Below are positions 1 to 58,797 of a stretch of 64,000 nt of DNA, piece after piece; within the stretch, counting starts at the first letter, position 1; the number at the start of each line of letters is the position of its first letter. Location of the stretch: sequence record MZ560701; one strand, given 5' to 3'. The translations under genes and the position numbers were made by a program. Source of the DNA: Escherichia phage vB_EcoM_TU01. Below the pieces are notes generated by a model. That model was not told the DNA's origin. It made no database searches and saw nothing but the letters and a program-made list of their open reading frames with translations.

Positions 1-432
1 GACACTGAAGGCTTTTGGACGATTGGCATAGGCCATTTAGTAACAAAGAACCCGTCTTTAGCCGTAGCTAAAGCTGAACTTGACAGAATGATCGGACGTA
101 AATGCAACGGTACAATTACCCTTGATGAGGCTGAAAAGCTATTTAATGAAGACGTTGATAAAGCTGTTCGCGGAATCTTGGGTAATGCTAAACTTAAACC
201 GGTATATGATTCTTTAGATGCGGTTCGTCGATGTGCATTGGTCAATATGGTCTTCCAAATGGGTGTAACAGGCGTCGCTGGTTTTACTAATTCTCTTCGT
301 ATGCTTCAACAGAAACGTTGGGATGAAGCGGCAGTAAATCTAGCCCAATCTAAATGGTATCGTCAGACACCTAATCGCGCGAAACGCGTAATCTCAACAT
401 TTAAAACAGGAACTTGGAAAGCGTATATATGA
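1..432 (+). CDS. e: T4-type lysozyme (endolysin), 5'-truncated at window edge
   Basis: Frame 1 from nt 1 gives ...[10 protein letters not shown]...[55 protein letters not shown]..., near-identical to T4 lysozyme as recalled; stop 430-432. Confidence 0.95.
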
Positions 433-11346: not shown

Positions 11347-11384
11347 AGACCTATCGAAACGAAATGAGTAAATTGGAGAATAAA

Positions 11385-12365
11385 ATGTTCAACGTTCAAA
11401 TCAAAAAAGGTATCTATCGTAATAACGAAATCTCTGGTTCTTATGTTGCCACAAAGACCTGGTTCCCGGCAAAGCTTAATCCTGAATGTTCCCACTTAGG
11501 TGATGGTAAAATTTTCGTTATGATTGATGGTTCTGAACGTGGAGTATGGGTCTTCAAATCAGACATCGTAATGGAAGGAGTTGAGACATCTCCAGTTGCA
11601 GTTGTTGAAAGCACTGAAGATATGAAAACTCGTATCAACAAACGCTTTAAAGTAATGAACATGATGACGAATGGCATTATCGATGGCAAAATTCGTTCAC
11701 TCATTATTTCAGGTGCTGCTGGTATTGGTAAGACGTATTCTCTGGATAAAGCACTTAATAATGCTAATGATAACGGTTTCATCAAATACAAAAGCATTAA
11801 TGGTAAAATCTCTGGTATTGGCCTTTACGAACAACTTTGGCTCAACCGTGATGCAGATAGCGTTCTCTTAATCGACGACGTTGACGTATTCTCAGATATG
11901 GACATCTTGAACCTTCTTAAAGCAGCATTAGATACCGGAGATAAACGCAAAGTTTGTTGGAGCACTGCGTCATCTTATCTCGATGATAAGGGTATTGATA
12001 AAGAATTTGAGTTTGAAGGTACTATCGTTTTCATTACAAACGTTGATATCGATAAAGAGTTAGAACGCGGTTCGAAACTTGCTCCACACCTTCAAGCTTT
12101 AGTATCTCGTTCAGTGTATCTCGACCTTGGAGTACACTCTAATGAAGAGATTATGGTTCGAGTTGAAGATGTAATATTATCTACTGACATGATGCAGAAA
12201 CGTGGTCTGACGGATGCAGAAACGTATAAAGCATTGTCCTGGATGAAGGCTAACGTATCTCGTCTTCGCAATGTATCATTACGTACGGCTCTTTATGTAG
12301 CAGATTTTATTTCAACTGATAAAGACGGTTGGGAGGAAATCTCCGAAGTAACTTTACTGAAATAA
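11385..12365 (+). CDS. AAA-type ATPase-like protein (Walker A GAAGIGKT, Walker B LLIDDVD)
   Basis: Start chosen at ATG 11385 (GGAGA RBS); ORF open from 11364. Confidence 0.55.
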   Translation: MFNVQIKKGIYRNNEISGSYVATKTWFPAKLNPECSHLGDGKIFVMIDGSERGVWVFKSDIVMEGVETSPVAVVESTEDMKTRINKRFKVMNMMTNGIIDGKIRSLIISGAAGIGKTYSLDKALNNANDNGFIKYKSINGKISGIGLYEQLWLNRDADSVLLIDDVDVFSDMDILNLLKAALDTGDKRKVCWSTASSYLDDKGIDKEFEFEGTIVFITNVDIDKELERGSKLAPHLQALVSRSVYLDLGVHSNEEIMVRVEDVILSTDMMQKRGLTDAETYKALSWMKANVSRLRNVSLRTALYVADFISTDKDGWEEISEVTLLK

Positions 12366-12849: not shown

Positions 12850-13377
12850 ATGAACGCTAAAGATATTTTCAACCTGGTAAATTATAACGACGGTAAATTT
12901 AAATCTGAAGCACAAAGCAAGTTCTTTAATGACGTTGCTTATGGTAATGAGATTACCGTGGACGGAGGTCAGATTTTCAAATCTCGCTGGAATTGGATTG
13001 CTATCATCGATTCAGTTGGAATTGTAGAAGTCTACAAAAACACTAACAAAAAACGTACATTATTCTGGTCTCGTGAAACTAACGAGCAGTACAAAAAGGA
13101 TAAAGCATCTCGTTTATCCAAAGTAACCCAGGAAGATATCGAGTTTATCAAGAAAGATATCGAGATGTACGAAAATTTAATCGCTGAAGACCAGGCAGTA
13201 CTCGATAAGTTTGATGAAATTAAAGCTTCTCGTGAAATCCCTGACTTCATGAAAGAAACAGTAAACGAACGATACGCTCTCACTTCAGAACGTATTGCAA
13301 ACTATACAAAACAGAAAGCAGAACGTATTAGTACTCTTCGGAAATTTGAAGAACGTTTAAAGACGGTTCACGCATAA
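12850..13377 (+). CDS. hypothetical protein
   Basis: ORF track; own promoter. Confidence 0.5.
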   Translation: MNAKDIFNLVNYNDGKFKSEAQSKFFNDVAYGNEITVDGGQIFKSRWNWIAIIDSVGIVEVYKNTNKKRTLFWSRETNEQYKKDKASRLSKVTQEDIEFIKKDIEMYENLIAEDQAVLDKFDEIKASREIPDFMKETVNERYALTSERIANYTKQKAERISTLRKFEERLKTVHA

Positions 13378-13378
13378 A

Positions 13379-13404
13379 CGCTTTACCCAAGGACGGGTTA
13401 TAAT
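13379..13404 (+). promoter_or_regulatory. middle-promoter-like (MotA-box-like CGCTTTA + TATAAT 13 nt downstream)
   Basis: TATAAT 13399-13404. Confidence 0.4.
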
Positions 13405-13439: not shown

Positions 13440-14435
13440 ATGAGCATTACATCTGATGCGGTAAAACATGAAATTAACGGTTTATGTGCTTCACAGATTA
13501 AAGTGTGGTTTAAAGACCATAATGATCGCAGAGCACTTAATTATGAACAAATTGCTATCCAAGTTCATCAATTACTGACTAGTAAATTTGATTTTCATAT
13601 GCCGTCTGAAATCTATACTAATCTGCCGCGAGCGCTTATTAAAGCGTGTAAAGGTTACGGAAAATCAATGGCTGATGGAATCTTCAGCGCGCTGAATAAA
13701 CTTAACGTTCTGTCGATGATTAACTCTAACAACATTCTGCGTAATCTAGGACGTACTGATTTGTTCGGTCGTGAACAGTGTAAAATGCCTTTGAAATGGA
13801 TTGTTGCTCATCTTAACGAGAACCAAACACGTTTTATGGCCGTATCAGCACGCTTACAAATGGGCCTAGATCGTCAGATGAACTTTAAAACTCATCCACG
13901 TTATTCAGGTTCAACAGACTTTTATAAATGTGAGCTTCAAAAGGTTGCAGGTAAAACTGTCTTAGTAGTTCGTGTAACGTTTGAAGGACGACGTCAAGGA
14001 TATTTTGACCTAATCGGCTCTGGTCTTAAACATTGTGGATTTATTGACGAAGTTGATATCAAGCGAGACGGCATTGGATACCGTATTGGATATGTTTGTA
14101 CTCTTAAAGAAGAGATTTCAGGACCAGCACCAGGACTAAAAGACGTTAGATATAAAGACGAGCTCGTTGAAGAAATAAAAGAAGTTGAATATGATATCAA
14201 CCAAGAAGATGCTCTTAAAGACCTTATTGATGAACTAAACCAAGACGTTATTCCGGTTCAGAAATTTGAATCAAAACATGCTGAGCAAATCAAATACTTT
14301 GAAGCTTTGATTAACGAACTTAATGTAACTATTCAACAGACTGACGATGAAATCTCACGATTAGCAGGCTTAAACGGTAAAAATAAAACAGAACGAGCTA
14401 ATCTTATTCAAGTAGTAAAACTTCTTAAGGAATGA
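13440..14435 (+). CDS. hypothetical protein with C-terminal coiled coil
   Basis: C-terminal heptad-rich EQIKYFEALINELNVTIQQTDDEISRLAG. Confidence 0.5.
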   Translation: MSITSDAVKHEINGLCASQIKVWFKDHNDRRALNYEQIAIQVHQLLTSKFDFHMPSEIYTNLPRALIKACKGYGKSMADGIFSALNKLNVLSMINSNNILRNLGRTDLFGREQCKMPLKWIVAHLNENQTRFMAVSARLQMGLDRQMNFKTHPRYSGSTDFYKCELQKVAGKTVLVVRVTFEGRRQGYFDLIGSGLKHCGFIDEVDIKRDGIGYRIGYVCTLKEEISGPAPGLKDVRYKDELVEEIKEVEYDINQEDALKDLIDELNQDVIPVQKFESKHAEQIKYFEALINELNVTIQQTDDEISRLAGLNGKNKTERANLIQVVKLLKE

Positions 14436-14464
14436 TGTACAACCAAGGATGGTTGGAGTATAAT
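14436..14464 (+). promoter_or_regulatory. repeated promoter cassette TGTACAACCAAGGATGGTTGGAGTATAAT (family A)
   Basis: TATAAT 14459-14464; stem CAACCA/TGGTTG; near-identical copies at 15431, 57295, 57854. Confidence 0.55.
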
Positions 14465-14490
14465 AAATTTTTCAACATGAGGAATATAAA

Positions 14491-15426
14491 ATGGCTTCTA
14501 TTACACGTAGAGAACTTATCAAAGAATTTACCTCGAACGCATATACCCCAGGTCCTAATCCTATCCGTATGCCTGTAAAGACTCCTGAAGAGATTGAGGA
14601 AATTTGTTCATATTATGGGATTACTTCTCGTAAGTTTACTCAATTTGAATGCGTTACTAACACACCCGTTAAAGAGTTCATTAAAAATGGTGAGTTCAGC
14701 CGTTTATTGGCCAAACAGAAACTTCGTAATTTTTGTATCGGCGGNNAAGGACAATATTTCGCTAAACAGTTCAGGAATAACCTTAACAATCTGATGGCCA
14801 TTGCTTCTCGTATTCGTCCTCAAGCAATTAACATGAAACATTTGAAATATACTTACGATAAGTTAGAAATCATGGTTATCAGTGAGAACGAGTTCACTCT
14901 TACGTATAAACCTAAGAATGATAACGTTGCTCGTGTATTCCACCAAGCGTTGGAAGTGTTAGGTGATAATATTCACGAGATTAAAGCAATTTATTCTCGT
15001 GAGCTTAATATTATCAACCCTATCAAGAATAAGGGCCATATCGCTATCCAGGCCCGTGTATCTATTGGTAAAAAGGTTCCTGCGCCATGGTGGCACAAAG
15101 ACTCTGAATACTATCAAAATCTTAAAAAGGAAAATGCAACGTTCGAAGCGTCAATTACTGCAACCCCAATTGGCAATGCTGAAGTTCTAGGTGCATATTC
15201 TACTGCTCCATCTATACACACTTCACCGTCGACTAAACTGGAAATCTCTAACGGTCTTCTTCCTGCCGAAGATTACTATTATAATCAAATCAAGGCCACT
15301 ATGGACCAACTGTCTGTTGAACTTGACAAAGCACAAGCTAAGCTTCGTGATGCTCAAAGTGTTGTAACCAAGCTCCAGTTGCAGTACTCTAAACTTTTTA
15401 ATGCAATGAATGCATTAAAATCATAA
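14491..15426 (+). CDS. hypothetical protein with C-terminal coiled coil
   Basis: QLSVELDKAQAKLRDAQSVVTKLQLQYSKLFNAMNALKS. Confidence 0.5.
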   Translation: MASITRRELIKEFTSNAYTPGPNPIRMPVKTPEEIEEICSYYGITSRKFTQFECVTNTPVKEFIKNGEFSRLLAKQKLRNFCIGXXGQYFAKQFRNNLNNLMAIASRIRPQAINMKHLKYTYDKLEIMVISENEFTLTYKPKNDNVARVFHQALEVLGDNIHEIKAIYSRELNIINPIKNKGHIAIQARVSIGKKVPAPWWHKDSEYYQNLKKENATFEASITATPIGNAEVLGAYSTAPSIHTSPSTKLEISNGLLPAEDYYYNQIKATMDQLSVELDKAQAKLRDAQSVVTKLQLQYSKLFNAMNALKS

Positions 15427-15430
15427 AANA

Positions 15431-15460
15431 GTTTACAACCAAGGACGGTTGGAGTATAAT
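15431..15460 (+). promoter_or_regulatory. repeated promoter cassette GTTTACAACCAAGGACGGTTGGAGTATAAT (family A)
   Basis: GTTTAC 15431-15436, TATAAT 15455-15460. Confidence 0.55.
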
Positions 15461-15488
15461 CTTTCTATCTTAACGAGAGGAAAATATT

Positions 15489-16439
15489 ATGACACGTTCA
15501 CATTACATTGATTATTTTGCAGGTCTTATCGCTAACGTTCATGCTCAGCGTGCTTCTGGTTCATTAGGATTTGATGTTCCACACCGAAATGTAGTAAGTG
15601 GTATTCTTCGAGATTTTGGTACATACACAGGTCAAGAAAATCATATCTGTAAAGATACTCAGAATGCGTATTCTCATTCATTAGGGACATTGCTTCAATG
15701 GTTCAAACGTTCTCGTTTATTATCTTCTACTGTGGCTCGTGATAACATTAAAAACTTTATGAAGCCGAGCTTTATTAAATCTGTGACATCTAAAACTGAT
15801 TTGGTTGAATTTACTATTATTAACGATGTTAAAAAGACTCATTTAGCTGATTGGTTATCTACCATTCCTGAAACTAAATTTGCTGATAAATTTGCTTGTG
15901 AATTCAATAACCAAGTGAATATGCTTTTTAAACATTCACGTAAATTATTCACAGGCGGCGATGACCGTACAAATACGGTTCATGTTAAGGATTGGGTTAC
16001 TGCAGTATTCAAACCAACTGGTAATGGTAACGCATCATTGTCAATTGATATCCAGGTTCCGTATTACTACTCACGTAATCTCGGTACAATGAAAGCCGAA
16101 GAAATTAATAAGCGCAACAAAACCGTTCGTTCGCTATCTTATAAACTTCGTATGATGTTACGGACTATGGACGTAGTAGAAATGTTCAGCGAAACCGAAG
16201 ATAACGGTTCAATGTTATTCAGTTCTCGTATTAAAATTAAGCTGAAGAACCCTAATACGTATAAACCTAAGCCTATTAAAGAGCCTAAAGCAGAAAAAGT
16301 TGATAATTTAAGAGAAGAACGTGAATACCTCAAATCTCGTCTGAAAGAAGTCGAAGCCCAGATTGCAGAACAAACTAAATCGTTAAAAGCTCTGAATGCG
16401 AAAGCGGACGGTTTACGAAATGCCATTGAGGTGTTATAA
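15489..16439 (+). CDS. hypothetical protein with C-terminal coiled coil
   Basis: NLREEREYLKSRLKEVEAQIAEQTKSLKALNAKADGLRNAIEVL. Confidence 0.5.
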   Translation: MTRSHYIDYFAGLIANVHAQRASGSLGFDVPHRNVVSGILRDFGTYTGQENHICKDTQNAYSHSLGTLLQWFKRSRLLSSTVARDNIKNFMKPSFIKSVTSKTDLVEFTIINDVKKTHLADWLSTIPETKFADKFACEFNNQVNMLFKHSRKLFTGGDDRTNTVHVKDWVTAVFKPTGNGNASLSIDIQVPYYYSRNLGTMKAEEINKRNKTVRSLSYKLRMMLRTMDVVEMFSETEDNGSMLFSSRIKIKLKNPNTYKPKPIKEPKAEKVDNLREEREYLKSRLKEVEAQIAEQTKSLKALNAKADGLRNAIEVL

Positions 16440-16744
16440 TGAAACTACGTCTTTTAGAGGATATTGATATGAGCACTAATCATGGCTTGGTTAAGTTTAT
16501 TGACGATAGTTCAAAGATTGAATTTGTTCAGCGAGATAAAATCCACGGTGAAGAAGAGTTCGTTCCTCCGGCATGGAACGAAATCATGAAAATGGTTGAA
16601 CGACGTGAAAATGCTGCCAAATCGGCAGCAAAACATCCATGCCCGGAATGTGGAACTATCCAAGTCCAACTGGTTAACTGGACCACTGATAACTTGAAAT
16701 TGAAATGCCGTAAATGCTTCCACAAATTTGAGAGAACATTATAA
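16439..16744 (+). CDS. hypothetical protein with C-terminal zinc-ribbon (CPECG...CRKC)
   Basis: TAATG overlap; paired Cys-x2-Cys motifs. Confidence 0.45.
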   Translation: MKLRLLEDIDMSTNHGLVKFIDDSSKIEFVQRDKIHGEEEFVPPAWNEIMKMVERRENAAKSAAKHPCPECGTIQVQLVNWTTDNLKLKCRKCFHKFERTL

Positions 16745-17157
16745 TGAGATATAGCCTTCGTTGTTTTATTGTAGCTTTAGTTTTTGCCATCATTCCATTC
16801 ATTTGGAACAGCCAGAATACTTACATGGAAACTAAAGTAATTCCTGTGGAGGTAGTGGAATTAATCTCAGGCCAATCTACAGGAAAATATTCTAAATTAG
16901 AATTTATTGCAGTCTATAAAGATGAGCAAGGACGAGTTTTTGACAGGCATGTATCTCCATCATTTTATACGCTTCTGAATAAAGGTGATACGATAGCTAT
17001 AGAAATTCGTGAGATGGATATCAAACAAACTACTAAAGATAACTTGATTTGGTTCTTTGGTACAGTGTTGTTGGTTTCTATCTGTATCACAGGTTTTATT
17101 ACATGTATTGTATTTGGCGTTGCATATTTAATTGATGAAAGGAAAAATAATGTTTAA
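16744..17157 (+). CDS. membrane protein (N- and C-terminal TM helices)
   Basis: FIVALVFAIIPFIW and LIWFFGTVLLVSICITGFITCIVFGVAYL. Confidence 0.5.
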   Translation: MRYSLRCFIVALVFAIIPFIWNSQNTYMETKVIPVEVVELISGQSTGKYSKLEFIAVYKDEQGRVFDRHVSPSFYTLLNKGDTIAIEIREMDIKQTTKDNLIWFFGTVLLVSICITGFITCIVFGVAYLIDERKNNV

Positions 17158-23693: not shown

Positions 23694-23933
23694 ATGGCCC
23701 AAGAATTAGANNNNNNNNNNNNNNNNNNNNNNNNNNNNNNNNNNNNNNNNNNNNNNNNNNNNNNNNNNNNNTATGACATTTTAACAGATGCTATTACTGT
23801 TAGTTGTGGTGGAAANNNNNNNNNNNNNNNNNNNACTGAAAACAAATACCCAATCTATAAAGGCATCTTTGATATGGGTGTTGATATTAGNNNNNNNNNN
23901 NNNNNNNNNNNNNNNNNNNNNNNNNNNAAATAA
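23694..23933 (+). CDS. hypothetical protein, mostly N-masked
   Basis: ORF spans three N runs; only fragments readable. Confidence 0.25.
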   Translation: MAQELXXXXXXXXXXXXXXXXXXXXXYDILTDAITVSCGGXXXXXXXTENKYPIYKGIFDMGVDIXXXXXXXXXXXXXK

Positions 23934-52831: not shown

Positions 52832-53413
52832 ATGACATGTCAATCTGAACTTCAAGAACGTGAATACCTAACAAATCTGATTGATAGCAAATTCACCCGC
52901 CAAGAACAAAACATTCTCTGGGCTTGCACCGATTCTAAGGAAGACCCGGATTTCCACTATGAATTAGACCATCTTGTTCGTAAGCATATGACTTCTACAG
53001 TACCAGTAGAACTCTACCGTGGTGTAACTCCAGAAGAAGTAGAACGTCTTTCACTTCTTTCTGTTGGATGCCATTGGTCTCCTGGACGAGTAACATCGTT
53101 CACAACTGATTTCAGTACAGCTCGTCAATTCTCCGGGAGATGGGAATATCAGACGTACACTATTCTTAGTCTCAGGAATGCTCCATTCATTTTTGATTAC
53201 TACCAAAACATGGTTAACATTGTACTTGCCGGAAAGAACCCTAAGCATGTTATGGAAGAAACTCGTNTNGATGTCCTAGATATGATTGAATCTGAACAAG
53301 AGTACATGGTCTCAGGTATCTCTAGATTTGAGATTGTGGAAATTGAAGACTTAGAATATGACCCTTTATCTCGATTATACAAAATCATTCATTTAAAAAT
53401 GTTGAATTTTTAG
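52832..53413 (+). CDS. modB: ADP-ribosyltransferase, ModB-like by position
   Basis: R-S-E class motifs: ELYRG, SFTTDFSTAR, EQEYMV; paralogue of next gene. Confidence 0.7.
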   Translation: MTCQSELQEREYLTNLIDSKFTRQEQNILWACTDSKEDPDFHYELDHLVRKHMTSTVPVELYRGVTPEEVERLSLLSVGCHWSPGRVTSFTTDFSTARQFSGRWEYQTYTILSLRNAPFIFDYYQNMVNIVLAGKNPKHVMEETRXDVLDMIESEQEYMVSGISRFEIVEIEDLEYDPLSRLYKIIHLKMLNF

Positions 53414-57294: not shown

Positions 57295-57324
57295 GTTTAC
57301 AACCAAGGATGGTTGGAGTATAAT
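57295..57324 (+). promoter_or_regulatory. repeated promoter cassette GTTTACAACCAAGGATGGTTGGAGTATAAT (family A)
   Basis: GTTTAC 57295-57300, TATAAT 57319-57324. Confidence 0.55.
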
Positions 57325-57355
57325 CTTTCTATCTTAACNAAACNGGAAAAACATT

Positions 57356-57850
57356 ATGAATATCAATACTACGGCTACTTACATCCTGAAAGACGAAAAA
57401 CAAATCAACTGGTACGGTGCTTCAGTGCGAGCTTATGAAAAGTTTTGTGAAATTTTAGGTGCCACTCAAGGTAATAGTTTCACTATTGTTAACTTCATTA
57501 AACAAGCTGAAGGCCCTTGGTTATTCTTAGAAATTAAAAATTCATACGGTACAATTTCTACTACCGCCATTCCAAGCACCGACTTTGAACTGTTGATTGA
57601 AGAAGCACCTGTTAAAGATGGTCTCCACTTTGATATGGATATCGCTTGTATGTACGGTACTCTGATTAAGCCTATTGAGCCTACTGATTTATTGTGTAAA
57701 TATGTTTCAATTCGNCGCCCATTCGCTGGNCCNGTAAATGGNTGGGTAACTGACCAGTGGATTGAAGATGGGGTTGAACTTCTGAACGTTGTTCATGCCG
57801 GTGATTTTAGTGTTGTTCCACGTAGTGCAGTAGTTAATATTCTAAATTAA
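57356..57850 (+). CDS. hypothetical protein, paralogue family WVxDxWxEDG (member 1)
   Basis: C-terminal WVTDQWIEDGVELLNVVHAGDFSVVP. Confidence 0.5.
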   Translation: MNINTTATYILKDEKQINWYGASVRAYEKFCEILGATQGNSFTIVNFIKQAEGPWLFLEIKNSYGTISTTAIPSTDFELLIEEAPVKDGLHFDMDIACMYGTLIKPIEPTDLLCKYVSIXRPFAXXVNXWVTDQWIEDGVELLNVVHAGDFSVVPRSAVVNILN

Positions 57851-57853
57851 TGT

Positions 57854-57882
57854 TGTACATCCAAGGATGGATGGAGTATAAT
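57854..57882 (+). promoter_or_regulatory. repeated promoter cassette TGTACATCCAAGGATGGATGGAGTATAAT (family A)
   Basis: TATAAT 57877-57882. Confidence 0.55.
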
Positions 57883-57912
57883 GAATTCAACTTAAACAAA
57901 GAGAGAAAAATT

Positions 57913-58368
57913 ATGATTACTATTGGTGAAATTAAGCGTGTATCAACTGCNTCNCGNTCTAAAGCNGCAGGTCGTCTGGTTGAAGTTGTCGGACTTCGNA
58001 CNAANGGCATGGGACGTNTTAAAGAAGTTAAAGTTCGAATCATTCCTAGTTTTGGACGTCAGGATNCTCAGTANGCTTACGTAAGTCCTAAATTCCTGGA
58101 AACTCCTGTGAGNGCTCCATTTGNTTCTACTGAACCTAATGCACAGTTNAAATGGGCCCTNTGCAAAGGCGTTGAATTCCAGACCGATAAAGAATTTGAT
58201 TACATCGACGAATACGGNTATCCAAGCAAAACTGATATTATGTGTGGCTTCATTAGTGACCAATGGGTTGAAGATGGTGAAAAGTTATACAATATCGTAT
58301 TCTTAGGTGACTTCCGAGTTGTTAAAGAATCTGAAATCACTCGCTATGTGTCTCCTCGTAAAGCTTAA
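57913..58368 (+). CDS. hypothetical protein, paralogue family (member 2; N-rich)
   Basis: C-terminal GFISDQWVEDGEKLYNIVFLGDFRVV. Confidence 0.5.
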   Translation: MITIGEIKRVSTXXXSKXAGRLVEVVGLXXXGMGRXKEVKVRIIPSFGRQDXQXAYVSPKFLETPVXAPFXSTEPNAQXKWAXCKGVEFQTDKEFDYIDEYXYPSKTDIMCGFISDQWVEDGEKLYNIVFLGDFRVVKESEITRYVSPRKA

Positions 58369-58377
58369 GGAATTATT

Positions 58378-58797
58378 ATGAATATTGTAAATCTCTCTAC
58401 AGGTGATTACGTATATGTATCTGTTGCTTCTCGCTCTAAAGTTGCCGGGAAGTTGGTTGAAGTTCTTTCTGTGAGTGATCCGGTTTTTGGTCGTAACCAA
58501 GTTAAAGTTCGTGACGCCGATGGTAACATTGGTTANGTCNCAAGCCAATTCATTGAACCNGAAGAACATGCGTTCAAATGGGGACTATGCAGATCAGTTT
58601 CAGTTGAAAAAGACCATGAATTCACTATTGCTGCGGCAACTGATGGGTCTCCATGGACAACTAAGCAAGTTGCCGGTTTTATTTCGGACCGTTGGGTAGA
58701 AGATGGTGTTAAGCTTTATAACATCGTTTTCGCTGGACAGTTCATGGTAGTTCCTGAATTCCAAATTAAAAAATATAGCCCAGCGGCTTTTGCATAA
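58378..58797 (+). CDS. hypothetical protein, paralogue family (member 3)
   Basis: C-terminal GFISDRWVEDGVKLYNIVFAGQFMVV. Confidence 0.5.
   Translation: MNIVNLSTGDYVYVSVASRSKVAGKLVEVLSVSDPVFGRNQVKVRDADGNIGXVXSQFIEXEEHAFKWGLCRSVSVEKDHEFTIAAATDGSPWTTKQVAGFISDRWVEDGVKLYNIVFAGQFMVVPEFQIKKYSPAAFA

Follow-up and report, generated by a model that had tools for sequence, protein, structure and literature searches.

Tandem genes of Escherichia phage vB_EcoM_TU01 as probable remote paralogs of a modular, recombining superfamily of NrdC.3-NrdC.6 type

The closest described systems to the locus considered here come from phage T4 and its relatives. Dsr1, a SIR2 NADase defence, is overcome by T4 through the NrdC.5 protein (Srikant, Guegler and Laub, eLife 2022, PMC9391042). 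A T4 clone with nrdC.5 deleted plates on MG1655 and fails to plate on ECOR17 or on MG1655 carrying dsr1 of ECOR17, and expression of nrdC.5 alone restores plating of this clone on dsr1 cells (PMC9391042). T4-type phages also contain the promoter-early stem-loop (PeSL) cassette, which has been linked to modular shuffling in hyperplastic regions (PMC2839356, PMC4122927), and PnrdC.7 is a mapped middle promoter of T4 with its start at 53325 (Hinton 2010, PMC2988021, Table 1). Here we analyse three tandem genes on the + strand of Escherichia phage vB_EcoM_TU01 (sequence record MZ560701), namely gene A (13440..14435), gene B (14491..15426) and gene C (15489..16439); positions refer to the whole stretch of 64,000 nucleotides that was analysed, hereafter the window. 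An earlier note on this DNA had described three tandem genes of about 310-330 amino acids (aa), and open reading frames (ORFs) of 331, 311 and 316 aa are present at these positions.

The array genes correspond to T4 genes that have long had names, although most of these are uncharacterised. On sequence grounds, genes A, B and C are assigned as the Mosigvirus orthologs of T4 nrdC.6, nrdC.5 and nrdC.3, respectively, and the T4 record aligns to the array region with its nrdC-mobD stretch of early genes. Gene A encodes a diverged NrdC.6 ortholog (PHROG 2257) that shares 29% identity with its T4 counterpart and, in tblastn, about 33% with nrdC.6 of Tequatrovirus. Gene B, which shares 24% identity with T4 NrdC.5, belongs to the NrdC.5 family (Pfam DUF7235, PF23882), and its residues 15-310 match positions 1-307 of the model with 376 bits (E = 1.6e-112; gathering score 30 bits). 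The same model is matched in full length by T4 NrdC.5 (418 bits) and by orf82 of the Dhakavirus IME08 (397 bits), the E-values including that of B ranging from 1e-112 to 1e-125. Gene C encodes an NrdC.3 ortholog (57% identity to T4 NrdC.3; PHROG 1435) and a paralog of T4 NrdC.4; nrdC.4 itself, the fourth T4 array gene, is absent from the TU01 locus. The window belongs to a T-even phage of the genus Mosigvirus and is about 98% identical to JS09. Escherichia phages of this genus (JS09, JN02, APCEc01 and others) match 3.3 kb around the array at 96-98% identity, and at least 80% of this region is covered in 131 records. Many records label the array genes as "thioredoxin", for which domain searches give no support; we rejected this identity as an artefact, because the label was carried over from the "nrdC.x" locus names.

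Beyond these assignments, we propose that A, B and C belong to one superfamily of NrdC.3-NrdC.6 type as tandem paralogs of great age and extreme divergence, and profile comparisons make their remote paralogy very probable. The sample comprised the region from 13 annotated phages and 47 IMG/VR contigs anchored on the conserved NrdC.10, from which 292 ORFs of 200-430 aa were extracted and then clustered. Eighteen clusters located between nrdC.10 and nrdC share the build of the array proteins: a basic N-domain of about 220-280 aa, a short, indel-rich and often proline-rich linker, and a heptad helix of 40-55 residues. The last 70 aa were removed for every homology test, so that only N-domains were compared and the composition of the coiled coils has no influence on the outcome. 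Between the nrdC.3 and nrdC.4 profiles, the match has a probability of 97% and E = 5e-11 to 8e-12 over about 208 columns. Among all 153 pairs of the 18 cluster profiles, 27 have E < 1e-2 and 15 have E < 1e-3; none of the 333 controls (153 reversed-template and 180 unrelated-cluster pairs) falls below 1e-2, the minimum being 0.014.

Leave-one-family-out searches gave a consistent picture. In these, a model of all clusters minus one family was searched on all ORFs together with reversed and shuffled decoys. With the nrdC.6 line left out, all 21 members were recovered, including A at E = 3.3e-5 (best decoy 0.36, best unrelated ORF 0.41). The nrdC.5 line was likewise recovered completely (19/19), with B at E = 2.6e-5 against a best decoy of 0.005 and a best unrelated ORF of 1.7, and so was the nrdC.3/4 line (26/26), with C at E = 1.3e-4 (best decoy 0.15, best unrelated ORF 4.0). 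These data argue for a single homologous N-domain that has diverged past pairwise detection. The earlier note had suggested functionally related, possibly diversifying proteins with variable N-terminal domains; relatedness of the three agrees with these results, but a reading of their N-termini as different domains does not.

Simpler comparisons did not reveal this relationship. BLASTP among A, B and C returned no match, nor did hhalign of the three on shallow alignments with an effective sequence number (Neff) of 1.2-1.5. We attribute these nulls to the shallowness of the profiles and not to an absence of homology. Word-indexed homolog searches yielded close relatives only (4, 33 and 19 proteins), and an exhaustive representative search with the B alignment, whose profile is too narrow, retrieved its own cluster and one fragment. 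An uncontrolled iterative hidden Markov model (HMM) that merged all families was discarded, because reversed decoys entered at E of about 1e-3 and the profile drifted once they had been added. Pairwise alignment, which the earlier note had named as the check, thus gives a divided answer: BLASTP and shallow profiles find no similarity, whereas controlled deep profiles do, and a naive application of that check would have gone halfway towards dismissing the relationship.

A signature helix and turn, located at about residues 90-160, aligns at an equivalent position in A, B, C and the 15 other clusters, following the pattern h-x3-h-(N/R)-x-N-x3-h-h-x3-(G/S)(A/S)(R/K)-L-x2-G-x-D-R. In A, the cluster alignment places it at aa 116-143, LKWIVAHLNENQTRFMAVSARLQMGLDRQ (13785..13868, + strand). 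In B, alignment places the helix at aa 87-113, GQYFAKQFRNNLNNLMAIASRIRPQ (14749..14829, + strand), the helix with its turn reading QYFAKQFRNNLNNLMAIASRIRPQ. In C, it occupies aa 131-160, KFACEFNNQVNMLFKHSRKLFTGGDDRT (15879..15968, + strand), by cluster alignment, and AlphaFold2 predicts a helix at 128-148. The AlphaFold2 models of C (predicted local distance difference test, pLDDT, 59.8) and A (47.9) show the same order of helices and strands and are too poor to superpose; in BFVD, both find weak matches to a common set of uncharacterised proteins (about 335-346 aa) encoded by distant T4-like phages. A Foldseek search of the PDB with the AlphaFold2 models produced no meaningful match (best E = 0.009, TM of at most 0.2), sequence searches of the PDB returned coiled-coil noise only, and none of the clusters has a match to a Pfam domain of known function.

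The second shared module is the C-terminal tail. To score heptad periodicity, the best 28-residue window was compared with 200 shuffles of the same protein; the score is home-made, and is not COILS or Marcoil. The signal is strong in B (window 269-296, z = 5.0, no shuffle reaching the score, 13 of 16 a/d positions hydrophobic) and in C (window 287-314, z = 4.0, again 0/200). It is weaker in A (window 282-309, z = 3.0), where 4 of the 200 shuffles reach the score and a G-L-N-G sequence interrupts the tail. The C-terminal coiled coils of the earlier note are therefore well borne out for B and C and less so for A. The tail of A is predicted to be helical by heptad score, AlphaFold2 and tail alignment (about aa 256-331; 14205..14432, + strand), ending ...ERANLIQVVKLLKE; AlphaFold2 models it as several broken helices over 256-330 with low pLDDT, behind a variable linker at about aa 220-255. 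The coiled-coil tail of B, defined by heptad score and tail alignment, spans aa 259-311 (15265..15423, + strand) and ends ...SKLFNAMNALKS. In C, AlphaFold2 predicts a disordered linker at 253-274 and then a single helix at 275-315, which together with the heptad score delimits a coiled-coil helix at aa 275-316 (16311..16436, + strand).

This layout extends beyond TU01. In all four lines of the T-even phages and in most of the remaining clusters, a helix of 40-55 residues comes after a short linker that is rich in proline and lysine and bears indels. The linker varies more than any other segment between close relatives, and the tail of C is more conserved than its N-domain. A few residues before the stop, the tail helix often ends in L-x2-(A/S)-h-x2-h, as illustrated by GLRNAIEVL in C, KLFNAMNALKS in B, RLEQALQLIK in T4 NrdC.4 and NLIQVVKLLKE in A. 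In its strict form, this terminal motif occurs in 9/18 family clusters and in 0/26 other clusters. Two further clusters have tails that match the C-terminal part of the DUF7235 model (E = 2e-7 and 2e-6). In a Pfam scan, weak matches to unrelated coiled-coil families fall on the array tails; PADLOC likewise produced weak matches to tails only (E of at least 0.006). For A and C, the output of both searches was coiled-coil noise from the tails, and the array genes are phage genes that resemble no defence-system model. The similarity of the tails that had been noted earlier thus takes the form of a linker, a heptad helix and a similar terminal motif in all three proteins.

Comparison of the array among relatives, as the earlier note had advised, showed that its copy number varies from one to four. 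The superfamily is present in 55/61 T4-like loci with the same architecture and genomic position: one copy in 31 loci, two in 5, three in 15 and four in 4. The three- and four-copy arrays are confined to the T-even type of arrangement. Most T4-like phages sampled carry one member of the superfamily, and T-even types carry an expanded set of 2-4 in tandem. The Mosigvirus records with B number 132, compared with about 150-157 for A and C. The array genes are also far more diverged than most of the neighbouring genes compared: against the identities to T4 of 29%, 24% and 57% for A, B and C stand 76% for NrdC.11, 77.5% for NrdC.10, 83% for NrdC.8, 90% for both NrdC and gp49, and 98% for NrdD.

Each of the three genes is preceded by a promoter cassette, as the earlier note had stated; its assignment of all three to one promoter family applies to B and C, but not to A, whose cassette is of the middle type. 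The cassettes of B (14436..14464, + strand) and C (15432..15460, + strand) are intergenic and read TGTACA-17-TATAAT and TTTACA-17-TATAAT, respectively. Both spacers hold a stem-loop, with stems of 5-6 bp and -6.2 to -6.9 kcal/mol; that of B is AACCAA/TTGGTT (-6.9 kcal/mol). C fits the PeSL consensus TTTACW-N17-TAYWAT and B fits it with one mismatch, suggesting that both are early sigma-70 promoters of the PeSL type. The related pattern TTTAC-N18-TATAAT occurs 17 times in the window, compared with 4.2 expected occurrences.

The cassette of gene A (13376..13404, + strand) consists of a MotA-box-like element, AAACGCTTTA (13376-13385), a 13-nt spacer with a short stem-loop, and the -10 element TATAAT (13399-13404). 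Relative to the MotA box consensus used here, (a/t)(a/t)(a/t)TGCTTtA at 12+/-1 bp from a -10 of TAtaaT, it has one box mismatch (C for T) and 13 nt to TATAAT. The sigma-70 scan contained no entry for this cassette, and no -35 element lies at the right distance. In T4, a cassette just downstream of nrdC.8 and upstream of nrdC.7 fits the mapped PnrdC.7 (start 53325, position worked out), and T4 nrdC.6 and nrdC.5 follow nrdC.7 without a promoter of their own. We infer that the A cassette is a middle promoter of the MotA-box type, orthologous to T4 PnrdC.7. An alternative reading, in which an early promoter has decayed and has a spacer of 11 nt, was given up, since a MotA box explains the sequence better and agrees with the mapped T4 promoter.

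The 29-mer of the B and C cassettes recurs in the window at 57296, where it differs from the C copy by one base, and at 57854. Downstream of dda and dexA homologs, 57296-58797 holds three small tandem paralogs of 164, 172 and 139 aa that share the motif FISD(Q/R)WVEDG..LYN(I/V)V..G.F.VV, and the 29-nt promoter and stem-loop cassette of B and C also stands before the first two of them. They appear to form another paralog array, of smaller size, that uses this cassette.

The repeated promoter cassettes look like recombination sites for the loss, gain and fusion of copies, as judged from the sequences of relatives. Phage ESCO47 (locus L003, 5976-6040) is without gene B, and a single cassette lies between its A and C orthologs. 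The left part of that cassette resembles the B cassette (TGA TGTACA...) and its right part the 5' leader of C, a hybrid as expected from recombination between the two. Gene 094 of Salmonella phage Manna (L005, 6001-7038) is a natural chimera with its junction at the linker, joining the N-domain and the tail of two paralogs: over residues 1-259 the protein shares 93% identity with T4 NrdC.6, its last 83 residues share 96% with the tail of T4 NrdC.4, and the phage has lost nrdC.5 together with most of nrdC.4. ACG-C40 (L009, 4805-5213) retains a 71-aa N-terminal fragment of NrdC.5 followed by a remnant of the NrdC.3 tail, and Pinarejo (L006, 6001-6135) an unannotated remnant of the NrdC.6 tail. 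In Dhakavirus and Gaprivervirus, 190-280 nt between nrdC.6 and nrdC.5 encode one or two small, very hydrophobic peptides (IME08, L004, 6664-6854; VR20, L007, 3644-3928; E33, L010, 2857-3072), a stretch that is absent from T4 and TU01. The T4 reference nrdC.6 (NC_000866, L001 8000-8894, minus strand) carries a frameshift near its 3' end relative to ACG-C40, IME08 and VR20, by which the tail is lost. Its annotated end is ...EELIFLFNNMMMKFSDYLD, and the roughly 70 "intergenic" nt before nrdC.5 encode, in another frame, the family tail ...SKAKSEREKLIKIVDLLKS followed by a stop. The frameshift would be either a laboratory-strain mutation or a sequencing error.

Regarding function, a counter-defence role of A, B and C is suggested by analogy, because one member, T4 NrdC.5, counters Dsr1. 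We lean towards the interpretation that the array encodes dispensable host-range factors whose N-domain blocks a host target, most likely a defence sensor, and whose tail holds them as oligomers. The divergence, copy-number variation and rearrangements of the array would be the signature of an arms race. Genes B and C would presumably be expressed immediately on infection, each from a strong early promoter of its own, and A would be made slightly later from a MotA-dependent middle promoter and by read-through. Each N-domain would bind and neutralise its host target, most likely the sensor of a defence system, and the tail would hold each protein as a dimer or higher oligomer. Recombination at the repeated promoter cassettes would allow copies to be lost, gained or fused.

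A wider version of this proposal is, in our estimate, rather unlikely: the superfamily might comprise modular inhibitors of bacterial immune sensors across T4-like phages, each N-domain blocking a different variant of a sensor module and the tails being interchangeable. According to a 2026 preprint, phage major capsid proteins are recognised by the TPR sensor that Dsr1 has in common with Avs7 and further effector fusions. This sensor would be one candidate target of such inhibitors. The interchangeable coiled-coil tail might supply avidity or hetero-oligomerisation, and T-even phages would carry a small recombining repertoire of inhibitors that is made before the capsid protein appears.

These proposals have to be weighed against other explanations. 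If A, B and C were three unrelated neighbouring ORFan genes that gained their tails independently and are of similar size by coincidence, the null results of BLASTP and shallow profiles, the assignment of the three proteins to three different PHROGs and Pfam families, and the exhaustive search with the narrow B profile, which found its own cluster only, would be readily understood. We nevertheless regard this as very improbable, since it is largely refuted by the controlled profile network and the leave-one-family-out tests on tail-less sequences, and since the signature helix at equivalent positions, as well as the same architecture and position in 55/61 T4-like loci, speak for common descent. 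Still less credible is the explanation that the array is functionless filler, i.e. decaying duplicated DNA between promoter cassettes in which the ORFs are under no selection. The dispensability of the genes in the laboratory and the frequent deletions, remnants and chimeras, together with the T4 nrdC.6 frameshift, are in its favour, but hundreds of genomes, spanning genera, retain the ORFs intact and at conserved length although their identity is 24-57%, the signature helix and terminal motif are conserved, and one member has a demonstrated selective function.

The main rival explanation accepts the paralog family and differs in what the proteins do: they might be dimeric, basic, nucleic-acid-binding factors for host takeover or regulation, and the effect of NrdC.5 on Dsr1 would be indirect. 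The N-domains are all strongly basic (net charge +8 to +13, pI, the isoelectric point, 9.2-9.8; 9.3 for the N-domain of A), a dimerising coiled coil beside a basic domain is a common nucleic-acid-binding layout, and the predicted early and middle expression would place the genes among other host-takeover genes. However, no DNA- or RNA-binding Pfam family is matched; the T4 clone that lost nrdC.5 is able to plate on MG1655, and supplying this gene alone is enough for plating on dsr1 cells; and a factor acting on conserved host machinery would be expected to be conserved, yet the array is among the most diverged parts of the region. We consider this explanation rather unlikely, though stronger than the other two, and retain the counter-defence interpretation. 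Several points weigh against our own conclusions as well. The AlphaFold2 models are poor (pLDDT 60 and 48), no PDB relative was found by sequence or fold, the heptad signal of A is marginal, and the nrdC.6 line is joined to the rest through intermediates and the pooled model, without a direct pair. Two small neighbours have also diverged from T4 (NrdC.9, 30%; NrdC.2, 51%), and divergence alone therefore does not single out the array. The known function concerns one family member only, T4 NrdC.5, which comes from another genus and is 24% identical to B, and the nrdC.3, nrdC.4 and nrdC.6 lines have no member with a known function. The mechanism of NrdC.5 against Dsr1 is not reported in the literature searched, and basic N-domains fit nucleic-acid binding as well as protein binding.

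The surroundings of the array are largely those of T4. On the + strand, homologs of nrdC.11, nrdC.10, nrdC.9 and nrdC.8 precede A-B-C, and nrdC.2, the nrdC.7 homolog, nrdC (glutaredoxin), pin and gene 49 follow. The NrdC.10 homolog (11364-12365) is an AAA+ ATPase with the Walker A motif GAAGIGKT. It is far more widely conserved than the array, with tblastn matches in 1311 phage records, including T4-like phages of Vibrio, Acinetobacter and Aeromonas and some jumbo phages, and serves as a good synteny anchor. A membrane-protein ORF of 137 aa at 16744-17157 is the homolog of T4 nrdC.7 (39% identity) and sits downstream of nrdC.2, not upstream of nrdC.6 as in T4. From this arrangement it appears that the nrdC.7 gene has moved relative to T4 and that its middle promoter has stayed upstream of gene A. 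In work on the defence DRT1 published in 2026, T4 nrdC.8 is listed as down-regulated in DRT1-expressing cells and is grouped with nucleotide reductases. In the sequence of the TU01 homolog (12850-13377) we see no support for a reductase function, and the name alone seems to be the basis of that grouping. The window contains 322 ambiguous bases (N), mostly single and scattered, with three runs at 23711-23927; near the array they fall at 14745-14746 in gene B and at 15429 just upstream of the C promoter. The scattered N bases suggest the consensus of a mixed population or deliberate masking.

What is new here is the proposal that the A, B and C families form one modular superfamily that recombines in T-even phages; our literature searches found no paper describing NrdC.3-NrdC.6 in this way. 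Hundreds of sequenced T-even phages label the array genes "hypothetical protein" or, wrongly, "thioredoxin". If nrdC.3-nrdC.6 and their single-copy relatives are one family, the function of NrdC.5 becomes a concrete hypothesis for the whole set, so that counter-defence could be tested for several unexplained T4 genes. One modular family would also explain why the content of this block varies between coliphages of the therapeutic type. If this is true, the family would lend itself to studying how a counter-defence gene duplicates, diverges and exchanges modules by means of its own promoter cassettes. For annotation, the three families now kept apart (PF23882, PF26897 and PF26899, and PHROGs 2351, 1435 and 2257) could be joined into one clan.

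Compared with the known systems, B agrees with T4 NrdC.5 in its full-length match to the same Pfam model, its position in the array, its architecture and a similar terminal motif, and differs in its low identity (24%) and its genus. The two genes also differ in expression signals: T4 nrdC.5 directly follows nrdC.6 and lacks a separate promoter, while B is preceded by a predicted early cassette. C and A correspond to the T4 genes nrdC.3 and nrdC.6 as orthologs in the same order, with the same flanks, nrdC.8 upstream and nrdC.2 downstream. They are set apart by the lack of nrdC.4 in TU01, by the position of the TU01 nrdC.7 homolog downstream of nrdC.2, and by the frameshift that removed the tail from the T4 reference nrdC.6.

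A working model for NrdC.5-type action may be found in DSAD1, a phage protein that blocks a defence-associated sirtuin, DSR2 (PMC10973363, PMC10981675). It comes from Bacillus phages and is likened to NrdC.5 by role. To our knowledge, DSAD1 is not part of a paralog array with coiled-coil tails.

The cassettes have counterparts of their own. Like T4 PnrdC.7, the TU01 stretch 13376-13404 has GCTTTA, 12-13 nt containing CCAAGGA(T/C)GG, and TATAAT, directly after nrdC.8; the T4 copy precedes nrdC.7, whereas the TU01 copy directly precedes the nrdC.6 ortholog, gene A, and its MotA box carries C for T at one position. The "PmSL" of phage nt-1 is comparable to this MotA-box variant. The published work on PeSL covers promoter and terminator activity and the formation of mini-circles (Arbiol et al. 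2010, PMC2839356; Comeau et al. 2014, PMC4122927), while the B and C copies are described here from their sequence. With PeSL they share an intergenic early sigma-70 promoter, as predicted, with a stem-loop between -35 and -10, and a cassette that is repeated in a hyperplastic region and tied to the gain and loss of genes.

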